From sequence record OR544954: DNA of 64,000 nt. One strand, written 5' to 3'. The notes under the pieces were generated by a model. It was not told the DNA's origin and made no database searches. It saw only the letters and a program-made list of their open reading frames with translations. Both the position numbers and the translations under genes were made by a program. This DNA is from Escherichia phage vB_EcoM_EP32a. Below are positions 786 to 19,196 of the stretch, in pieces (position 1 is the first letter of the stretch; the number at the start of each line of letters is the position of its first letter).

Positions 786-2519
786 TTACCCAATATCAAT
801 ACGAGATCCGTCAACAGTGTATTGTCCTGAAGCTACTGAGCTCATTGTAGACATTGTTTCTGCCCAATCCCCTGCAACAGTCATATCAACATTACCGTTA
901 ACAGTCCATTTAACGTTTCCGTTGACGGTGTAATCATGATTCCCTTCGACCTGAGTTTTAGCATCACCTTTAACAAGAATATCTGCATTTCCGTCAACAA
1001 CTATTTTGATATTCCCCTTAACGTAAAGAGTTCCATCACCTTCAACAGTTTTAGTTTGATTACCACGAATAAAGATTGTGTCATTGCCGTCTATTTGATG
1101 GAGGCGGTCTGCCATGTTATAATATATTTCATTAGCGCCAACGTTAACAAGCTTATCGCCAGAAATCAAGAAGTTCCCATCACCATTAGTGATGTCATAA
1201 AGGTCTTCTACAGTTTTACGAGTACGACGCCCGGACGGAGAAACTTCCTCATATGACCCTGTTGGATGAACTAAGCGATAACGTTCATTACCTGGAGTAT
1301 CGTCAAATTCTTGGATATGACCACTTTCTGTTTCCATAGCATGAACGTATGGATACTCACCACGATAACTTGATTCTGGTTCTTTAAAAAGGATGCGTGA
1401 ATCTAATGGAACAGGAGGACCAGCCGGGTCTTCTGAATCGGTATTTCTAGTAACTAAATCGGCACCAACTCCTGGTGAAGGAGGTGTTTTAACAGGAACA
1501 CCGTATGATTCCATATTACCTGTTAAAATAATTGTTGTTACACGTGAAGCGCGTCCTTTAGTCTGTTGGAACCATAATGAATCGCGCCCAGATTTGTATG
1601 CAGTTTTCCAATCACCTTCGGCCATTGCTTTAAGCATAGTATTGAATTTTGCTACACCACCAACGCCCATTTGGAAGCACATGTTTTCTAATGCCATTTG
1701 GCGAGATCTGTTCATTTTAGCATAAACAGGACCCACTTTAGAATTAGAACGAATGTCTTTCTGCATCTTAGCAAGGTCTTTCTCAAATAACGCTGTTGCT
1801 TCTTCTAATGTAATAGTCCCGGGATTTCCTGTTACTTCACGCCCTACTTGATCAGATAACAATTTATTAATTCGAGACATATCTCGGGTCTTTTCCATTA
1901 CGATAAGGTGTCCAATACCTACTGTAGGATACCCGAGATGGTCCCAATACACTTTATCACGAAGACCTTCGTCACGACGTAACATTTCTGTTATTGTAAA
2001 ATTAGGGTCATCATCTTCTGGAATATTTGCTAAATCTGTATCATCTGGGTTTATACCATAATCCAAGTTGTTATCTTGAATTACGTTAGAGTTCGAATAA
2101 TAACCAGCTTCACCACCTTGGTTTAATACGTTCGTATCATTACCTAAACGTCGTGGATATTGACCTGTAGGGTCGGAAAAACCTTCGAGTCTATTAGGCT
2201 TTTCGCGTACAATTCCACCGTATGTACCGAGTACAATACCGTTTGTTTTCCATTTGTCTAAGAAATGACCATATACTCTAGTTCCTTCAACAGGACCTGT
2301 AACAGAACCACCAATACCTGACATTGACGCAGACGTAATAGGTTGAATAACAGTCATCCACGGAAGTTTTTCTGTAGGAATACCTTGTACGTCACCTTGT
2401 GCTCTCTGTGCCGGATGAAGACCAACGACTCGAACTCGAACTCGCCCTTGTTTTAATGGGTCCATTCTGTCCTCGACAACACCAACGAACCAATTAAGGC
2501 TACTGCTAATCATTTCCAT
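786..2519 (-). CDS. 5: baseplate hub subunit and tail lysozyme gp5
   Basis: 577-aa ORF (T4 gp5 is 575 aa); internal lysozyme domain (GYPTVGIGHL, GREVTG...EEA); C-terminal beta-helix repeats (VxGN/VDGN). Confidence 0.95.
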   Translation of the reverse strand: MEMISSSLNWFVGVVEDRMDPLKQGRVRVRVVGLHPAQRAQGDVQGIPTEKLPWMTVIQPITSASMSGIGGSVTGPVEGTRVYGHFLDKWKTNGIVLGTYGGIVREKPNRLEGFSDPTGQYPRRLGNDTNVLNQGGEAGYYSNSNVIQDNNLDYGINPDDTDLANIPEDDDPNFTITEMLRRDEGLRDKVYWDHLGYPTVGIGHLIVMEKTRDMSRINKLLSDQVGREVTGNPGTITLEEATALFEKDLAKMQKDIRSNSKVGPVYAKMNRSRQMALENMCFQMGVGGVAKFNTMLKAMAEGDWKTAYKSGRDSLWFQQTKGRASRVTTIILTGNMESYGVPVKTPPSPGVGADLVTRNTDSEDPAGPPVPLDSRILFKEPESSYRGEYPYVHAMETESGHIQEFDDTPGNERYRLVHPTGSYEEVSPSGRRTRKTVEDLYDITNGDGNFLISGDKLVNVGANEIYYNMADRLHQIDGNDTIFIRGNQTKTVEGDGTLYVKGNIKIVVDGNADILVKGDAKTQVEGNHDYTVNGNVKWTVNGNVDMTVAGDWAETMSTMSSVASGQYTVDGSRIDIG

Positions 2520-3094
2520 TATGCAATCTCCATCTCACGAATCAAATCTGTGATAAACGAGTTTATATCTTCTTTTGCAACAATTTTTATTTTACGAAGT
2601 TTTTCATTATCTAATACTGCCGCTTCATAAGTATCTACTGCAGCTAAAGGTCCTTTATATTGCGGATACTTACGAGCTTCATCACCTTTATCGTACCACA
2701 CTAAAGGCTCGTCCGGATATGAAACCAAATTGTAAAATTTCTCACGGTTCTCGTTAATATGATAAAGAATTTGGTCTCCGCCGGCATTTGCATATTTCTG
2801 AATAGAAGCTTGATACGCTGCTTCCTGAGATGTAATCCAACCATAATACGGGTCGTAGTTATCGTTGCACATCAAAAGAACCCAGTATAATTGTGGGTTT
2901 CCATAAATTATGTTTGCTAGTTCTTCAGGACGTGGAGAGCCTTTAATGTAATAAGAACGTAATCTATAATTGGCCGCCACACGCTTAAAGTACTCTTTAT
3001 AGTTACGAAATATGTCTGTCATAGGAATAGTAGGTGCATTCTTATTAACTGTTTTAGCACTATATCCTATTGGGTCGAAGAATGTAAATAACAA
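2519..3094 (-). CDS. 53: baseplate wedge protein gp53
   Basis: 191-aa ORF MLFTFFDPIGYSAKTVNKNAPTIPMTDIFRNY... matching T4 gp53; stop overlaps gp5 start. Confidence 0.9.
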   Translation of the reverse strand: MLFTFFDPIGYSAKTVNKNAPTIPMTDIFRNYKEYFKRVAANYRLRSYYIKGSPRPEELANIIYGNPQLYWVLLMCNDNYDPYYGWITSQEAAYQASIQKYANAGGDQILYHINENREKFYNLVSYPDEPLVWYDKGDEARKYPQYKGPLAAVDTYEAAVLDNEKLRKIKIVAKEDINSFITDLIREMEIA

Positions 3095-3121
3095 GATAGT
3101 CTCCTTCCAATATGAAATTGG

Positions 3122-3129
3122 TATAAATA
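3122..3129 (+). promoter_or_regulatory. late promoter (TATAAATA) for gene 4
   Basis: Exact T4 late-promoter octamer about 27 nt upstream of the gene 4 ATG. Confidence 0.6.
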
Positions 3130-3136
3130 ATAATAC

Positions 3137-3144
3137 TATTTATA
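3137..3144 (-). promoter_or_regulatory. late promoter (TATAAATA on minus strand) for gene 53
   Basis: Plus-strand tatttata is TATAAATA on the minus strand, about 43 nt upstream of the gp53 ATG; divergent from the gene 4 promoter. Confidence 0.55.
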
Positions 3145-3155
3145 AGGAGGACAAC

Positions 3156-3605
3156 ATGGCCTACTCTGGTAAATGGGTCCCAAAAAATTTAAAAAAATAC
3201 CGTGGAGACCATACCAAAATAACGTATCGTTCAAACTGGGAAAAATTCTTTTTCGAATGGTTGGATAAAAATCCAGAAATTATTGCATGGGGTAGTGAAA
3301 CAGCAGTAATTCCATATTTTTGTAATGCTGAAGGTAAGAAACGTCGATACTATATGGACATATGGATGAAAGATGCATCAGGCCAAGAGTTTTTTGTAGA
3401 AATAAAACCAAAGAAAGAAACTCAACCACCTATTAAGCCCGTAAATCTTACGACCGCAGCAAAGAAACGTTATATGAATGAAATCTACACGTGGTCTGTG
3501 AACTGTGACAAATGGAAAGCTGCTTCAGCTGTTGCTGAAAAGAGAAATATAAAATTTCGAGTTCTAACCGAAGATGGACTTAGGAAACTCGGATACAAGG
3601 GGTAA
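3156..3605 (+). CDS. 4: head completion protein gp4
   Basis: [43 protein letters not shown]... matches T4 gp4; start moved to the internal ATG preceded by AAGGAGG. Confidence 0.9.
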
Positions 3606-3607
3606 TT

Positions 3608-4429
3608 ATGAGCATATTCCAAATTATATCTGAAGGCGTACAAGCCCCTAAGATTGCTCAGTCTATGAATGAAAGAAAATGGATTGAGATAGGATTAGAA
3701 TACAAGAAAGCTAAAGAGAAAGGAATCACTGCAAAAGCATTTGCAGAATCAAAAGGAATAAAATACTCGTCGTTTACATCTGCAATGTCTAGATATGCAT
3801 CATCTATTAAGACTGCACAGAAAATTGAAACGCTTGAATCTAAACCTAAAAATAAACTCAATAAGCAAGAACGTCAACTTCTGATGATAAACTCGTTTCG
3901 CAGTTCAATACGAGAAAAGATTAGAAATGAAGGCGCAGCAGTAAACAACAAATCATCTAAGTGGTTTGTTGAAACAATTAAGAAAAGTGTAAAAGGTCAT
4001 AAAGTAGTCAAACCTACGCCAGGCAAAATTTATACTTACGTTTATGATGCTAAACATAAAGATACTCTGCCATACTGGGACCGATATCCTTTGATTATTT
4101 ATTTAGGATTAGGTAAACATAATTTGATGTATGGGTTAAACTTGCACTATATCCCACCTAAAGCGCGTCAACAGTTTCTTGAAGAATTGCTGAAGCAATA
4201 TGCTAGCACAACTACTATTACTAATAACACAAAGTTGAAAATAGACTGGAGTAAGGTGAAAGGATTTCAAGGTGCTGACAAAATGATTAAAGCATACTTG
4301 CCAGGCCACATTAGAGGAACAATAACAGAAATAGCTCCTAAAGACTGGGCTAACATAATCATGTTACCTACTCAGCAGTTTATGTCAAAAGGAAAACGTT
4401 TCTCTGCGAATACTGTTTGGAAATCTTAA
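3608..4429 (+). CDS. 2: DNA end protector protein gp2
   Basis: 273-aa ORF (T4 gp2 is 274 aa), conserved position between genes 4 and 3. Confidence 0.9.
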
Positions 4430-4531
4430 TTCTATTCTCTTCCGTTCGTCTGATATTCTATTGAACCGGATTAATGGAAGAGACCTAAAACCATTATACT
4501 GCATTTTTATTAAAGCGTTTTTGAGGTGCTT

Positions 4532-6671: not shown

Positions 6672-6959
6672 ATGAAAACCTATAAAGAATTTATATCACC
6701 TGTTGCTAACGTTTCTACTCTGACCGAAGCATCCCTTACTTCTGAAGTTATTAAAACAAATAAAGGACGTGAGGGTAAACCAATGATTAGTCTGGTTGAT
6801 GGTGAAGAAGTAAAAGGTACTGTTTACTTAGGGGATGGATGGTCTGCTAAGAAAGATGGCGCTACTATTGTTATCTCTCCGGCTGAAGAGACTGCACTGT
6901 TTAAAGCTAAGCATATTTCTGTAGCTCAGCTTAAAATTATTGCAAAAACTCTTCTGTAA
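6672..6959 (+). CDS. ipI: internal protein (ipI-like) with capsid targeting sequence
   Basis: N-terminal MKTYKEFI is the T4 CTS consensus; 95 aa, same as the T4 IPI precursor; T4 ipI position after 57B. Confidence 0.7.
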   Translation: MKTYKEFISPVANVSTLTEASLTSEVIKTNKGREGKPMISLVDGEEVKGTVYLGDGWSAKKDGATIVISPAEETALFKAKHISVAQLKIIAKTLL

Positions 6960-8446: not shown

Positions 8447-8520
8447 GGCCCTGTAGCTCAATGGTTAGCAGCAGTCCCCTCATAAGGGAAAGGTTACCAG
8501 TTCGAATCTGGTCTGGGTCA
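8447..8520 (+). tRNA. tRNA with CAU anticodon (Met, or Ile-AUA if lysidine-modified)
   Basis: Manual cloverleaf fold: acceptor GGCCCTG/CTGGGTC, T-arm ACCAG-TTCGAAT-CTGGT, anticodon loop CTCATAA; D-stem imperfect. Confidence 0.7.
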
Positions 8521-8526
8521 TATATT

Positions 8527-8603
<77 letters not shown>

Positions 8604-16165: not shown

Positions 16166-16613
16166 GAAAAATAAAGTGAAAGAACTATCAGCCGGTATTA
16201 TTTTCCTTACCGAAGATAAAGAATTATTCATGGGGCGTGTAACTGGTTCTCGTCCTAAAGGTTCTTTAGCTCATCGCTGGGATATTCCTAAAGGACGTGT
16301 CGAGCCCGGTGAATCTCCTATTGAAGCCGCTATTCGCGAATGCGAAGAAGAAACTGGGTTTACACAATATGACCCTGCCTTCCTGAAAGACCTAGGTGAA
16401 CATCATTACTCAGACAATAAGAATATTCATCTGTTCCTATATACCATCCCTGTAGAGCACGAGCAATTCAGAAACAGTGCTTGTAATTCCTATCATACAT
16501 TCCCAGACGGACGACAGATTCCTGAATTTGATGCGTTCGCTTTAATTAAACCTTCTCAATGGGAATATGTAATGGGCAAATCATTATATAAGGTGCTCAC
16601 TACCCTCCTATAA
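16155..16613 (+). CDS. nudE: Nudix hydrolase (NudE / e.1-like)
   Basis: Nudix box GRVEPGESPIEAAIRECEEETGF; immediately upstream of lysozyme as in T4. Confidence 0.8.
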   Translation: MMSKKNKVKELSAGIIFLTEDKELFMGRVTGSRPKGSLAHRWDIPKGRVEPGESPIEAAIRECEEETGFTQYDPAFLKDLGEHHYSDNKNIHLFLYTIPVEHEQFRNSACNSYHTFPDGRQIPEFDAFALIKPSQWEYVMGKSLYKVLTTLL

Positions 16614-16647
16614 GTAATAAATACCTCCTATAAACGTGGGAGGTATT
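16603..16647 (+). promoter_or_regulatory. SD-sequestering hairpin with embedded late-promoter-like TATAAAcg upstream of gene e
   Basis: tACCTCCtataaacgtgGGAGGTa: the SD GGAGG pairs with upstream CCTCC; direct repeat cctcctataa at 16603 and 16624. Confidence 0.45.
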
Positions 16648-17136
16648 ATGAATATATTTGAAATGCTTCGTAATGACGAAGGTCTTAGACTGACTTTATA
16701 CAAAGACACTGAAGGCTTTTGGACGATTGGCATAGGCCATTTAGTAACAAAGAACCCATCTTTAGCCGTAGCTAAAGCTGAACTTGACAGAATGATCGGA
16801 CGTAAATGCAACGGTACAATTACCCTTGATGAGGCTGAAAAGCTATTTAATGAAGACGTTGATAAAGCTGTTCGCGGAATCTTGGGTAATGCTAAACTTA
16901 AACCGGTATATGATTCTTTAGATGCAGTTCGTCGATGTGCATTGGTCAATATGGTCTTCCAAATGGGTGTAACAGGCGTCGCCGGTTTTACTAATTCTCT
17001 TCGTATGCTTCAACAGAAACGTTGGGACGAGGCGGCAGTAAATCTAGCCCAATCTAAATGGTACCGTCAGACACCTAATCGCGCGAAACGCGTAATCTCA
17101 ACATTTAAAACAGGAACTTGGAAAGCGTATATATGA
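16648..17136 (+). CDS. e: endolysin (T4 lysozyme e homolog)
   Basis: [32 protein letters not shown]... strongly similar to T4 lysozyme. Confidence 0.95.
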
Positions 17137-17414
17137 AAACATATAGTGAATTTTTATCAGAATCTATTCTTAACGAAGCTACTGACACATTTGCAACTAA
17201 GCTAGGTGCAGCTTTGGTTGAAGCTGAAAGTCTATTAGCACGTATTTCTGAACTTGCTAGTAAGATAGATACTCGCAAATTTGAACGTACCAGCGATATC
17301 GCTAAGCTTGAAGCCTTGTTGCGTATGTGTGATAAACCGGAAGAAATCGCTAAGAACGGCTCGCTGATGAAACAACGTCTTGAAAAATATATTTCAGGCG
17401 CTTCAGAAAAATAG
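17133..17414 (+). CDS. internal protein (ipII-like) with capsid targeting sequence
   Basis: Starts [10 protein letters not shown] (CTS consensus); 93 aa; between e and denV. Confidence 0.65.
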
Positions 17415-17416
17415 TG

Positions 17417-17455
17417 TTTACTTCCTCCAAGGGTTTTGATACTATACATTCATCA
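17417..17455 (+). promoter_or_regulatory. early promoter cassette with palindrome
   Basis: GTTTACttcctccaagggttttgaTACTATacattcatcaactacttggagg; inverted repeat cctccaag/cttggagg. Confidence 0.45.
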
Positions 17456-17472
17456 ACTACTTGGAGGAAATT

Positions 17473-17886
17473 ATGACTCGTATCAATTTAACACTTGTTT
17501 CTGAACTGACCGACCAACATCTTATGGCTGAGTATCGTGAATTACCACGCGTATTTGGTGCAGTCCGTAAACATGTTCAAAACGGTAAACGTGTAAAGGA
17601 TTTTAAAATCTCTCCAACATTTATCTTAGGCACAGGTCACGTAACATTCTTTTACGACAAACTCGAATTTTTACGTTTACGTCAAATCGAGCTAATCGCT
17701 GAATGCTTGAAACGTGGTTTCAAAATCAAGGACACGACTGTTCAGGATATTTCCGACATCCCTGCCGAATTTCGTAATAATTACGTCCCGTCCGAAGCGT
17801 CCATTGCGATAAGTCAAGCACGCTTAGATGAAAAAATTGCTCAACGTCCGACTTGGTACAAATACTATGGTAAATCAATTTACTAA
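17473..17886 (+). CDS. denV: endonuclease V (pyrimidine-dimer DNA glycosylase) DenV
   Basis: [35 protein letters not shown]... matches T4 DenV. Confidence 0.95.
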
Positions 17887-17893
17887 GGAAAAA

Positions 17894-18154
17894 ATGAAAA
17901 TGTATCAAGAATTTATCATTGAAGCAGATGCCAAAGACCCTAAATTTAAAGTTAAAGCTTTCATTGGTGATGCGGAAGACTTTGGCTCATTAAAACGTAA
18001 TGGGTATTCTTTCTTAGGTGGTGATGGTAAAGAAATCAACACCTATGCAAAACGTAGTGAAATTGCTTATGTTGTAGTAAGTCCTAAAGTAGATGTTGAC
18101 GATATTGGATACGATTTTAACAACTTCGGAATTATTTCTGGCGGTAAAGCTTAA
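17894..18154 (+). CDS. internal protein-like with capsid targeting sequence
   Basis: Starts MKMYQEFIIEA (CTS-like); 86 aa. Confidence 0.55.
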   Translation: MKMYQEFIIEADAKDPKFKVKAFIGDAEDFGSLKRNGYSFLGGDGKEINTYAKRSEIAYVVVSPKVDVDDIGYDFNNFGIISGGKA

Positions 18155-18157
18155 ATT

Positions 18158-18195
18158 GTTTACGCTTAAGTATTAATATGGTATAATTACTCTAT
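18158..18195 (+). promoter_or_regulatory. early promoter (GTTTAC -35, extended TGGTATAAT -10)
   Basis: ttGTTTACgcttaagtattaataTGGTATAATtactctatcaaaa. Confidence 0.55.
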
Positions 18196-18217
18196 CAAAA
18201 CAAACAAGGAAACAAAA

Positions 18218-18295
18218 ATGAAAACATATAAAGAATTTATCGCCGATCCAACCTGTAATAAGGTCGAGCCCAAGTGCGGTAATGGGTTTACATAG
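18218..18295 (+). CDS. 25-aa peptide carrying only a capsid targeting sequence (MKTYKEFIADPTCNKVEPKCGNGFT)
   Basis: ATG after AAGGAAACAAAA, downstream of a strong early promoter; first 8 aa identical to the ipI-like CTS. Confidence 0.4.
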   Translation: MKTYKEFIADPTCNKVEPKCGNGFT

Positions 18296-18351
18296 CGAGT
18301 CGAAGGACCTAACATGTGCCACGGAATGGCCCAAACCTTAAGAGAAATAAT

Positions 18352-18891
18352 ATGAGAACATTTTTAACTGGACCTTATCTATCCCTGATGAATGCTTTTA
18401 CACACCATTCTGATGCTAGAGTAGAAGAAATTTGTAAGAACGGTTATGTCCCGCCATTTGAAGAAGTACTCAAGCAGTACTGTACACTTCGTTTAGACGG
18501 CGGCCGACAATCCGGTAAATAAATTGCTGTGACTAACTTTGCTGCTAATTGGCTGTATGATGGTGGAACAGTTATTGTTCTTTCTAATACTTCAGCTTAT
18601 GCTAAAATTTCTGCTGGCAACATTAAAAAAGAATTTTCTCGTTATTCTAGCGATGATATTCGATTCCGTTTATTTACTGATTCTGTTCGTAGTTTTATTG
18701 GCAATGAAGGTTCTAAATTCCGTGGATTAACGCTTTCTCGTATTCTGTATATAATTGACGAGCCTATTAAAGCTCCTGATATGGATAAGATTTACAATGT
18801 ACATATTAAAACAGTCCAACACTGTTGCAAAAGCAAATATTGCATCGGCGGTAATGCTCGTCCTCAATTTTTTGTGATTGGAATGCAATGA
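18352..18891 (+). CDS. putative P-loop NTPase interrupted by in-frame TAA (18520-18522) directly after the Walker A lysine
   Basis: ...LRLDGGRQSGK-TAA-IAVTNFAANWLYDGG...ILYIIDEP in one continuous frame; GxxxxGK is followed by a stop where S/T is expected; Walker-B-like IIDE downstream. Confidence 0.4.
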
Positions 18892-19196
18892 TGACCACTA
18901 TTGAAGTTTTTGAGTATTGTTATAACAGTCCAGTATGCAATAAAAGGGCCCTTGTAGAAAATTACGAGATTTACCATTTTAAACCTAAACGATATCGTTT
19001 GACTAAAGGTCCGTTCGCAGGGCAGCAGGTTCTTTGTACTGCTCCTAATGCACGACTGATGACTAGTATTCCACATTTCAAAATGGAATTTATTGATGGG
19101 CCATTTAAGGGATTAATCACTCAAAGTTTAATGGCGTTTAATTCCGACCCATTTTTGATTAAAGAAAAATCTTGGATAAATTTATTTTCTAATTGA
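18888..19196 (+). CDS. hypothetical protein
   Basis: 102-aa ORF, ATGA overlap with upstream ORF. Confidence 0.45.
   Translation: MMTTIEVFEYCYNSPVCNKRALVENYEIYHFKPKRYRLTKGPFAGQQVLCTAPNARLMTSIPHFKMEFIDGPFKGLITQSLMAFNSDPFLIKEKSWINLFSN

Follow-up and report, generated by a model that had tools for sequence, protein, structure and literature searches.

The window analysed here, i.e. the whole stretch of 64,000 nucleotides from Escherichia phage vB_EcoM_EP32a (sequence record OR544954), contained four plus-strand ORFs whose products start with the capsid-targeting sequence (CTS) of T4 internal proteins: ORF 6672 (6672-6959, 95 aa, MKTYKEFI), ORF 17133 (17133-17414, 93 aa, MKTYSEFL), ORF 17894 (17894-18154, 86 aa, MKMYQEFI) and ORF 18218 (18218-18295, 25 aa, MKTYKEFI). 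A six-frame scan with the pattern MK[TM]Y.EF[IL] returned precisely these four, against an analytic chance expectation of 1.6e-4, and no match occurred in 300 first-order Markov simulations, which bears out the first-pass annotation that had placed the T4 consensus at these positions. The form MKT(Y/F)xEF(I/L), including key residues 4 and 7, was recognised in all four ORFs, and the motif was also found in the DNA as a direct repeat of 21-28 nt with 76-90% identity. Genome comparison established the identity of the phage and its synteny with RB69; on these grounds it is an RB69-like phage (Mosigvirus) with the usual predicted T4-type set of head-internal proteins.

Internal proteins with a CTS have been on record for some 30 years, together with their diversity and their role against restriction. 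The CTS is the sole conserved part among otherwise diverse internal proteins (PMC3012670); its residues 4 and 7 serve targeting, residues 8 and 10 processing (PMC9026906). Close pairs of T4-like phages differ in internal-protein content (PMC4122927). By analogy with T4, the CTS would tether each protein to the prohead scaffolding core and the gp21 protease would then cut off the propeptide; hundreds of copies would remain in the head, enter the host with the DNA and counter host defences.

Internal-protein genes of the window

Three of the four ORFs were genuine internal-protein genes of T4 type, as the first-pass annotation had proposed, with family matches and 86-99% identity to T4 or RB69 proteins. 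These full-length ORFs all displayed a gp21-type (L/I)xE site, which was not found in ORF 18218, and a mature part belonging to a recognised internal-protein family (PF11634/phrog_4363, phrog_3499 and phrog_2667 for ORFs 6672, 17133 and 17894, respectively). Their mature parts were mutually unrelated. The span 17133-18295, described earlier as an internal-protein region, does hold such ORFs; it also encloses denV (17473-17886), which is no internal-protein gene. The late-promoter motif TATAAATA had no occurrence within the internal-protein locus and a window-wide total no higher than chance.

ORF 6672 (6672..6959, plus strand) consisted of a 19-residue propeptide (CTS MKTYKEFI..., LTE↓A at residues 17-19) and a 76-residue IPI*-like mature protein. 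In T4, IPI* is injected into the host, where it inhibits type IV restriction by GmrSD. ORF 6672 matched the Pfam profile PF11634 IPI_T4 over positions 1-76 of 76 (E 2.6e-49; 165.5 bits, gathering cut-off 25), was assigned to PHROG 4363, and its residues 20-95 aligned end to end with residues 1-76 of PDB entry 2JUB (E 7.4e-41). Identity with T4 IPI reached 86% over all 95 residues, and the gene order 1-57A-57B-ipI was that of T4. Both proteins share a 19-residue propeptide ending in (L/I)TE↓A, a 76-residue mature part and a place downstream of 57B, but differ in the propeptide (MKTYKEFISPVANVSTLTE in ORF 6672, MKTFKEFTSTTTPVSTITE in T4 IPI) and at roughly 7 positions of the mature part. From sequence comparison, ORF 6672 is a homolog of the anti-GmrSD protein IPI, which the first-pass annotation had cited as a packaged internal protein of T4. 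Because of the 86% identity to T4 IPI, it is predicted to inhibit GmrSD-type restriction of sugar-modified hmC DNA. The inhibitory specificity of IPI is narrow (PMC3012670), and an IPI homolog is present in RB69 (PMC13326640).

ORF 17133 (17133..17414, plus strand), whose start codon overlapped the stop codon of the lysozyme gene e (ATGA), matched phrog_3499 'internal head protein' (E 2e-46) and was 91% identical to RB69 ORF127c, labelled internal head protein in RefSeq. Its candidate gp21 sites were LSE↓S (residues 8-10) and LNE↓A (13-15), and its CTS was canonical, whereas that of ORF127c is divergent (MKTYMNFYQN). ORF 17894 (17894..18154, plus strand) matched phrog_2667 'internal head protein' (E 1.5e-21) and displayed 98.8% identity to RB69 ORF125c, its CTS and candidate gp21 site reading MKMYQEFIIE↓A. 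This family was narrow: its 12 protein clusters came either from T4-like phages of enterobacteria or from contigs. The order e - ip - denV - ip was common to the window and RB69, ORFs 17133 and 17894 being the orthologs of ORF127c and ORF125c. Remote homology of the mature part of ORF 17894 to IPI was rejected, nothing being shared past the CTS. PDB sequence searches with ORFs 17133 and 17894 gave nothing significant, an AlphaFold2 model of ORF 17894 (8-sequence alignment, mean pLDDT 45.7) was too poor to use, and the full-text literature searches brought up no proteomics on ORF125c or ORF127c of RB69 type.

ORF 18218 and the deletion junction

ORF 18218 (18218..18295, plus strand) encodes the peptide MKTYKEFIADPTCNKVEPKCGNGFT, which holds two Cys. 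The early promoter and Shine-Dalgarno sequence previously attributed to it were both found: an early-type sigma-70 promoter, TTTACG-17-TGgTATAAT (18159..18187, plus strand; 10/12 matches, with an upstream TG), and AAGGA a few bases 5' of the ATG. No Pfam or PHROG family was matched; IAD occupied the cleavage position and no (L/I)xE occurred anywhere in the peptide. The ipIII-like part comprised codons 1 to 9 plus two bases of the tenth; the remainder was a translated RNA element (see below). The promoter region was 100% identical to that of the 192-aa ipIII-like gene of vB_EQ1. Likewise, the first 29 nt of the ORF agreed with the L032/vB_EQ1 ipIII-like allele at 3/3 polymorphic positions, so that promoter, ribosome-binding site and gene start are common to the stub and to the ipIII-like genes (phrog_5341) of vB_EQ1 and IMG/VR L032.

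It had been suggested that ORF 18218 might prove to be a truncated copy of a full-length ip gene elsewhere, and such a gene was found (192 aa in vB_EQ1 and L032). Of the two possibilities raised for this ORF, a remnant or a packaged peptide, the first stood: 9 1/3 codons from the start of an ipIII-like gene had been joined by deletion to non-coding sequence upstream of vs.8. Nothing indicated that the peptide is a selected gene product. ORF 18218 is best read as what remains of the beginning of a fourth gene, of ipIII-like type, and not as an independent gene. Its promoter is, by the same comparison, inherited from the deleted gene and now leads transcription into the stub, the remains of the RNA and vs.8.

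The junction was located at 18246..18247, where GA(G/A) (Glu10) of the ipIII-like gene and a T of the RNA flank form GAT (Asp10). Homology to every relative stopped at 18240-18249 on the left and restarted at 18247-18262 on the right, and the breakpoints agreed to a few bases against vB_EQ1, OLB35, NHEP10, L026, L028 and L032. With RB69, window positions 16600-18249 corresponded to 1501-3150 of the locus and 18247-18900 to 3857-4509. A base-by-base reconstruction gave the window as L032 up to 1614 joined to L032 from 2592 onwards, with 977 bp missing and no microhomology. About 706 bp were missing relative to RB69/APCEc01 and 617 bp relative to vB_EQ1; both the size (617-977 bp) and the absence of microhomology depend on the relative taken as parent model. 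With a parent of RB69 type the two sides would overlap by 3 nt (TCC), but such a parent mismatches the left-flank polymorphisms.

The locus spanned 2368-3330 bp in the best 30 records against 2001 bp in the window, and none of the best 40 phage records was collinear across the junction. The exact junction sequence had no match in IMG/VR or the JGI metagenomes, and no same or similar CTS-to-RNA fusion was found in phage records or in these two collections. In relatives this slot was 0.6-1.0 kb longer and contained a single complete CTS gene or a pair of them. Bounded by the ORF125c-type gene on one side and vs.8 on the other, it is a variable site for cassettes, occupied by an ipIII-like gene, an ipII-like gene, or ORF124c and ORF123c. 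As judged by these alignments, the 0.6-1.0 kb that was lost began within codon 10 of an ipIII-like gene and reached halfway into the structured RNA that precedes vs.8; the event would be an illegitimate deletion in which microhomology played little or no part.

A short locus could also arise as an assembly or sequencing artefact, reads having collapsed between CTS repeats while the actual genome has a complete cassette. The 21-28-nt near-repeats could indeed mislead an assembler, and a second oddity, the nonsense codon of vs.8, lies just 270 bp off. Yet the right breakpoint fell in unique sequence of the RNA element, outside the CTS repeats, and both flanks were clean, with 97-100% identity to relatives. 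Repeat collapse would moreover give a CTS-to-CTS join followed by an intact downstream gene, as in NHEP10. An artefact is thus very unlikely, although in a single assembly either the junction or the vs.8 stop codon might be an error of sequencing or assembly.

The structured RNA and vs.8

The sequence beneath the tail of ORF 18218 was the 3' two-thirds of an RNA element (18247..18333, plus strand), comprising P2, two core hairpins, the pseudoknot 3' strand and a 3' hairpin. What was deleted is the 5' domain, made up of P1, hairpin Pa and the pseudoknot 5' strand: covariance model R1 matched window positions 18235-18333 with 88.5 bits, 54 model positions of the 5' domain being reduced to 8 nt. 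The full-length element measures about 145 nt and includes a near-invariant 40-nt core, AACCUGUAAUAAGGUCGAGC-N6-GCGGUAAUGGG, which occurred once in the window. It was found in T4 itself, in Mosigvirus, in Klebsiella and other T4-like phages and in rV5-like Vequintavirinae, as well as on two metagenome contigs, where it lay within a tRNA array or at one end of it; one of these contigs was distantly related to jumbo phages.

Structure and covariation were assessed on 18 distinct full-length type-A copies, in which 99.1% of the alignment cells were paired, against 23-45% when partners were slid by 1-3 columns. The covariation score was 0.154 versus 0.054 in shuffles and was reached by 0/500 of these. 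Double-sided changes occurred in five pairs, two of them in the pseudoknot helix. Other lineages retained P1 in the form of unrelated sequences, and inspection by eye gave candidate partners for the pseudoknot that were complementary there too. Single-nucleotide indels between close relatives broke all reading frames through the element. The element is a conserved structured RNA whose pairs are kept by compensatory change, and coding does not explain it. Folded alone, the window fragment gave z = 0.17, which is uninformative because this copy is truncated.

Against Rfam 15, the copies from the window, from RB69 and from T4-like and rV5-like phages produced noise only (E >= 0.17, far under gathering scores), ARAGORN detected no tRNA in the tail of ORF 18218, and nothing relevant was found in the literature on vs.8 or on structured RNAs of T4 and rV5. 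Host mimicry was rejected, the element being unmatched in 5,426 complete E. coli genomes; two bacterial-MAG matches to an 18-mer failed the covariance model. An RNA-protein module with vs.8 was likewise discarded, the neighbours of the element in rV5 being unrelated to vs.8. We regard it as an evenly balanced proposition that the element represents an undescribed class of small pseudoknotted RNA, trans-acting or processed to a stable form and with a function tied to enterobacterial hosts; natural truncation or swap mutants of it would then be provided by the window phage, by OLB35 and by vB_EQ1, which is chimeric.

The first-pass annotation had described ORF 18218 as a CTS plus a Cys-containing tail. 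The two Cys are present; the tail is not a protein feature, since its frame is read off a structured RNA with 1-nt indels in close relatives. This bears directly on the alternative of a functional, selected micro-protein, a CTS-tagged Cys peptide that would be packaged, injected and act on the host. In its favour, no damage is seen in the promoter, the Shine-Dalgarno sequence, the start codon or residues 1-9 of the CTS, a 10-residue CTS suffices to target foreign proteins, and Asp10 is reported to permit targeting yet block gp21 processing (PMC9026906). However, residues 11-25 derive from an RNA conserved by base pairing, in which single-nucleotide indels break the frames, no gp21 site was found, and neither junction nor ORF occurred in any other record of the phage database, IMG/VR or the JGI metagenomes. 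OLB35 and L022 possessed comparable CTS stubs (22 and 35 codons, respectively) whose tails were unrelated. Such a micro-protein is hardly credible. Under the preferred reading of a deletion stub, a 25-residue peptide may still be made from the promoter, ribosome-binding site and CTS that survive, and would be an accident of deletion and not a selected product. By analogy with the reported Asp10 variant, this peptide, its CTS being intact, would be admitted to proheads without cleavage, and passive packaging may occur.

Least probable of all is that the window represents an ancestral 'empty' cassette site (promoter, CTS and flank) at which relatives later gained different payloads: homology limits nearly coincide against relatives with four different payloads, as a site bounded by conserved sequence would have it, and modular shuffling is documented for T4-type hyperplastic regions (PMC2839356, PMC4122927), but the 54 missing model positions of the RNA 5' domain are present and covarying in full-length copies, which argues for loss, the first 29 nt of the stub bear ipIII-like allele-specific bases, and codon 10 is a hybrid. 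The state of the window is, on this comparison, derived and not ancestral, since its RNA copy is devoid of a 5' domain seen in full-length T4-like, rV5-like and tRNA-array copies.

Downstream of the RNA, vs.8 (18352..18891, plus strand), coding for a P-loop protein, displayed an in-frame TAA (18520-18522) in its Walker A motif, which read GGRQSGK-stop in the window versus GGRQSGK[S/T] in relatives; TCA, ACA or ACT occupied this position in 11/11 relatives matching the codon pattern. The T4 annotation places the RNA element inside the vs.8 coding sequence, as an N-terminal extension. The element as true N-terminus of vs.8 was rejected: a stop closes the extension in other Tequatrovirus-like copies and 1-nt indels shift the frame in Mosigvirus. 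Because the same deletion truncated the RNA and the adjoining vs.8 carries a nonsense codon, the accessory locus appears to be decaying in the lineage of the window phage. Taken as a whole, and for a single assembly, an explanation with three intact internal-protein genes, a 25-codon deletion stub and a decaying locus is in our view highly probable.

Accessory gene loss and comparison with known systems

The finding of internal proteins is in itself ordinary and already known, their RB69 orthologs being annotated. The stub offers a natural example of fast loss of accessory counter-defence genes, mirroring laboratory deletions of ipIII in T4, and a caution for annotation, as a small ORF that looks well expressed can be a deletion scar. 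The RNA is the more valuable lead: it is conserved, covarying, present in T4 and in unrelated enterobacterial myoviruses, and outside Rfam. If real and undescribed, it would add a further stable RNA to the phage that has been studied best, and natural mutants are already to hand in the window phage, OLB35 and vB_EQ1. It may be compared with rnaC and rnaD of T4, small stable RNAs of the tRNA cluster: the element is similar in size and is associated with tRNA arrays outside T4-like phages. Unlike rnaC and rnaD, it precedes vs.8 in T4-like phages, at a distance of some 6 kb from the tRNA cluster in the case of T4, and has no Rfam family. Homology to rnaC or rnaD was discarded, no similarity being evident on inspection.

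T4 sheds ipIII by deletions of 0.7-6 kb in the laboratory, where IPIII is a dispensable, readily deleted host-range factor (PMC9391042); the window stub is likewise devoid of the mature protein of about 182 residues, with Glu10 changed to Asp. In RB69 and APCEc01 the same slot, behind the same upstream promoter region, holds ORF124c and ORF123c (phrog_3966), which start with MKTY(K/Q)EFI, are annotated as hypothetical and not as internal proteins, and are missing from the window. Shuffling of T4-type hyperplastic regions likewise involves promoter-led cassettes of small ORFs that are gained, lost or swapped (PMC2839356, PMC4122927, PMC9391042), and short microhomologies are usual in T4 deletions (PMC9391042), which tells against the deletion reading in so far as the best-fitting parent gave none. 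In contrast to PeSL- or microhomology-based shuffling, the deletion of the window joins neither promoter cassettes nor CTS repeats and ends inside a structured RNA.

Internal-protein genes of the window

Four ORFs had been listed by the first-pass annotation as starting with the T4 capsid targeting sequence (CTS), and a six-frame scan with MK[TM]Y.EF[IL] returned exactly these, at 6672-6959, 17133-17414, 17894-18154 and 18218-18295, and no others. Chance would provide 1.6e-4 matches to this motif, and none occurred in 300 Markov simulations. At the DNA level, the motif forms a direct repeat of 21-28 nt. Internal proteins are a diverse set whose sole common part is the CTS (PMC3012670; PMC9026906); likewise, the mature parts of the full-length ORFs were unrelated to each other beyond it.

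ORFs 6672, 17133 and 17894 are real internal-protein (ip) genes; they were already known, and as an internal-protein story the finding is of low interest. The first (6672-6959, + strand) is an ipI homolog whose match to Pfam IPI_T4 spanned the entire profile (E 2.6e-49) and which displayed 86% identity with T4 IPI. Its residues 20-95 aligned from first to last residue with the IPI* chain of solved structure 2JUB, and its LTE|A site sits exactly at the start of mature IPI*. An IPI homolog encoded by RB69 was reported earlier (PMC13326640). ORF 17133 (17133-17414, + strand) is of the RB69 ORF127c type (91% identity; phrog_3499) and ORF 17894 (17894-18154, + strand) of the RB69 ORF125c type (98.8% identity; phrog_2667), two families labelled 'internal head protein' by both RefSeq and PHROGs. 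(L/I)xE sites were found at positions 8-10 in both and additionally at 13-15 in ORF 17133. The family of ORF 17894 is narrow (12 clusters), and structure prediction for this ORF gave no usable fold (pLDDT 45.7). The stretch from 17133 to 18295, initially described as a run of internal-protein genes, does contain such genes, together with denV (17473-17886), which is not one of them.

The start codon of ORF 17133 and the stop codon of lysozyme gene e overlap (ATGA, 17133-17136), suggesting that this ip gene is translationally coupled to e. RB69 ORF127c (locus L001, 2034-2315) displayed a divergent N-terminus, MKTYMNFYQNLSLNE|A, where its window ortholog (17133-17414) carries a canonical CTS, the two being nearly identical past this point; judging from this comparison of sequences, the CTS itself would be a hot spot for recombination or mutation. 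By analogy with T4, the CTS would dock an internal protein on the scaffolding core, protease gp21 would cut off the propeptide, the protein would be injected together with the DNA, and IPI* would block GmrSD. On ECOR17, IPIII acts as a host-range factor (PMC9391042).

The 25-codon ORF 18218

The signals first described ahead of ORF 18218 were recovered, namely a promoter (TTTACG-17-TATAAT with an upstream TG, 18159-18187) and an AAGGA ribosome-binding site. The first-pass annotation had proposed either a remnant or a packaged peptide. Comparison with relatives upheld the former: ORF 18218 joins what is left of an ipIII-like gene to an RNA element; it represents no novel type of packaged peptide and does not stand as a gene of its own, being a truncated copy of an ip gene that is full-length elsewhere. 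Window segments 16600-18249 and 18247-18900 were collinear with two RB69/APCEc01 blocks that lie ~706 bp apart in those phages, and the absent ~706 bp comprise the body of ORF124c and the whole of ORF123c, both of which start with a CTS. This variable slot, between ORF 17894 and vs.8, was occupied by an ipIII-like gene (192 aa) in vB_EQ1, an ipII-like gene (100 aa) in OLB35, an ORF123c-type gene only in NHEP10, and ipIII-like plus ORF123c-like genes in IMG/VR contig L032. Against every one of these relatives, homology to the window ended at 18240-18249 and restarted at 18247-18262. At the three allele-specific bases (ACA, ATC, GCC), the first 29 nt of the stub agree with the vB_EQ1 and L032 ipIII-like gene, not with ORF124c. 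From an L032-like parent, the junction was rebuilt base for base as ...ATCGCCGA | TCCAACCTG..., which implies a loss of 977 bp without microhomology. In the hybrid codon 10, GA from the ip-gene Glu10 and T from the downstream flank give Asp. The CTS-RNA junction was absent from the phage records, IMG/VR and JGI metagenomes searched.

In the mutagenesis of Mullaney and Black, as relayed in PMC9026906, CTS residues 4 and 7 served targeting and residues 8 and 10 processing, and Asp at position 10 stopped processing while still allowing targeting. With its Asp10, the stub peptide, if made, could thus enter proheads without being cleaved; there is no sign that it is under selection. Other CTS stubs, unrelated to that of the window, were observed in OLB35 (L004 1295-1363; 22 codons, frameshifted, ORF123c type, MKTYQEFITEVHYLRNRKLLSK) and in compared locus L022 (35 codons; minus strand, offset 1068 in the reverse-complemented locus). 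From these sequences, CTS stubs would appear to be a recurrent by-product of turnover at ip loci.

A collapse of the assembly between two CTS copies could be invoked for the short locus, and is unlikely because the right breakpoint sits in unique sequence. Nor is the slot an ancestral empty cassette site: its state in the window is one of loss, because the window RNA copy is devoid of a 5' domain that full-length copies keep in all lineages. In vs.8 (18352-18891), an in-frame TAA (18520-18522, 270 bp downstream of the junction) falls in the Walker A motif (GGRQSGK*) and divides the gene, one ORF ending at 18522 and the next starting at 18529; the codon is TCA, ACA or ACT (Ser or Thr) in 11 of the 11 relatives compared. 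Together, ip cassette loss, RNA truncation and the vs.8 nonsense codon suggest an accessory locus decaying in this lineage, in agreement with earlier work showing that such regions are plastic (PMC2839356, PMC4122927) and that T4 readily loses ipIII in evolution experiments (PMC9391042).

A pseudoknotted RNA upstream of vs.8

The one item worth pursuing is a conserved pseudoknotted RNA met while explaining the tail of the 25-aa ORF. Stub residues 11-25 are read from 18247 on, where the 3' portion of a GC-rich non-coding element lies; this element is found ahead of vs.8 in several genera of T4-like phages. The first 40 nt of the portion recur in unrelated rV5-like phages at ~97% identity. The element is ~145 nt long and pseudoknotted, with a near-invariant 40-nt core. 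Full copies were located in compared locus L002 (3799-3943), T4 (L038 3819-3941, minus strand) and rV5 (L006 2466-2564); the window copy (18247-18333) is without the 5' domain.

Among 18 distinct full-length RB69-type copies, an eight-helix structure was 99.1% paired, versus 23-45% in slid controls, and its covariation score (0.154, versus 0.054 in shuffles) was reached by 0 of 500 shuffles. Covariation supported five helices, pseudoknot included. Double-sided changes were recorded for four: P1 (G-C, C-G, A-U), hairpin Pa, P2 (U-A, U-G, A-U, C-G) and the long-range pseudoknot helix (C-G/A-U/G-C at one pair, G-C/C-G at another). P1 was retained in other lineages with unrelated sequences. Candidate pseudoknot partners, complementary by eye within each lineage yet short and not individually significant, were CUG/CAG in T4, CCAG/CUGG in rV5, GAGG/CCUC in a second rV5-like group and CGG/CCG in two metagenome variants. 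Against a covariance model derived from the 18 RB69-type copies, T4 scored 82 bits, rV5 41 bits and the window copy 88.5 bits; in the window copy, 8 nt stand in for 54 model positions (the 5' domain). We read the element as a stable structured RNA. Coding was ruled out because 1-nt indels separate close relatives. No Rfam 15 family matched any version, no E. coli chromosomal homolog was found, and inspection revealed no resemblance to T4 rnaC or rnaD.

Distribution of the RNA and comparison with RB69 and T4

The RNA lies between tRNA-Thr and tRNA-Gly in metagenome contig L052, directly after a tRNA array in metagenome contig L070 (distantly related to 350-kb jumbo phages) and ~0.5 kb upstream of the tRNA array in rV5-likes. 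The latter display a motif, CCC(U/A)UAGAGGGCUUGA(U/A)AGUGC, just upstream of the RNA (L006 2431-2470; rV5-like metagenome contig L029, 60-110 and 195-225), which recurs within its 3' part in one subgroup and could act as a promoter or processing signal particular to this lineage. Contig L029 also carries a group I intron (3115-3418; Rfam RF00028, 81 bits) ~3 kb downstream of the RNA.

The window and OLB35 displayed independent 5' truncations, and the vB_EQ1 copy (L003 2223-2350) is a chimera of a T4-type 5' hairpin and an RB69-type 3' domain, in which the strands of the pseudoknot (CUG and GCG) have lost their complementarity. Its switch point is the start of the invariant core, a position suggesting that the core serves as a recombination point between cassettes. 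From these three sequences, the RNA appears dispensable in some Mosigvirus genomes.

In T4, the RNA directly follows denV, and the annotation gives vs.8 (219 aa as annotated) 40 additional N-terminal residues read from it: the annotated gene begins inside the 5' hairpin and reads through the RNA (L038 3819-3941, minus strand; NC_000866, ~64818-64940). In relatives, vs.8 starts with MRTFLTG, and a stop codon stands ahead of that ATG in other T4-like copies; the T4 extension is probably an annotation artefact, to judge from these alignments.

The region displayed 97-98% identity with RB69-like coliphages (Mosigvirus: APCEc01, mar005P1, RB69), and no identical record was found in the phage collection. 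Gene order was that of RB69 and T4, both in the first block (1 - 57A - 57B - ipI - ... - tRNAs) and in the second (nudE - e - ip - denV - ip - [variable slot] - vs.8 - vs.7). Between ipI and e, the window (8447-8603), like RB69, carries two tRNA genes only (Met-CAT and Arg-TCT), whereas the corresponding T4 interval holds eight tRNAs together with rnaC and rnaD.
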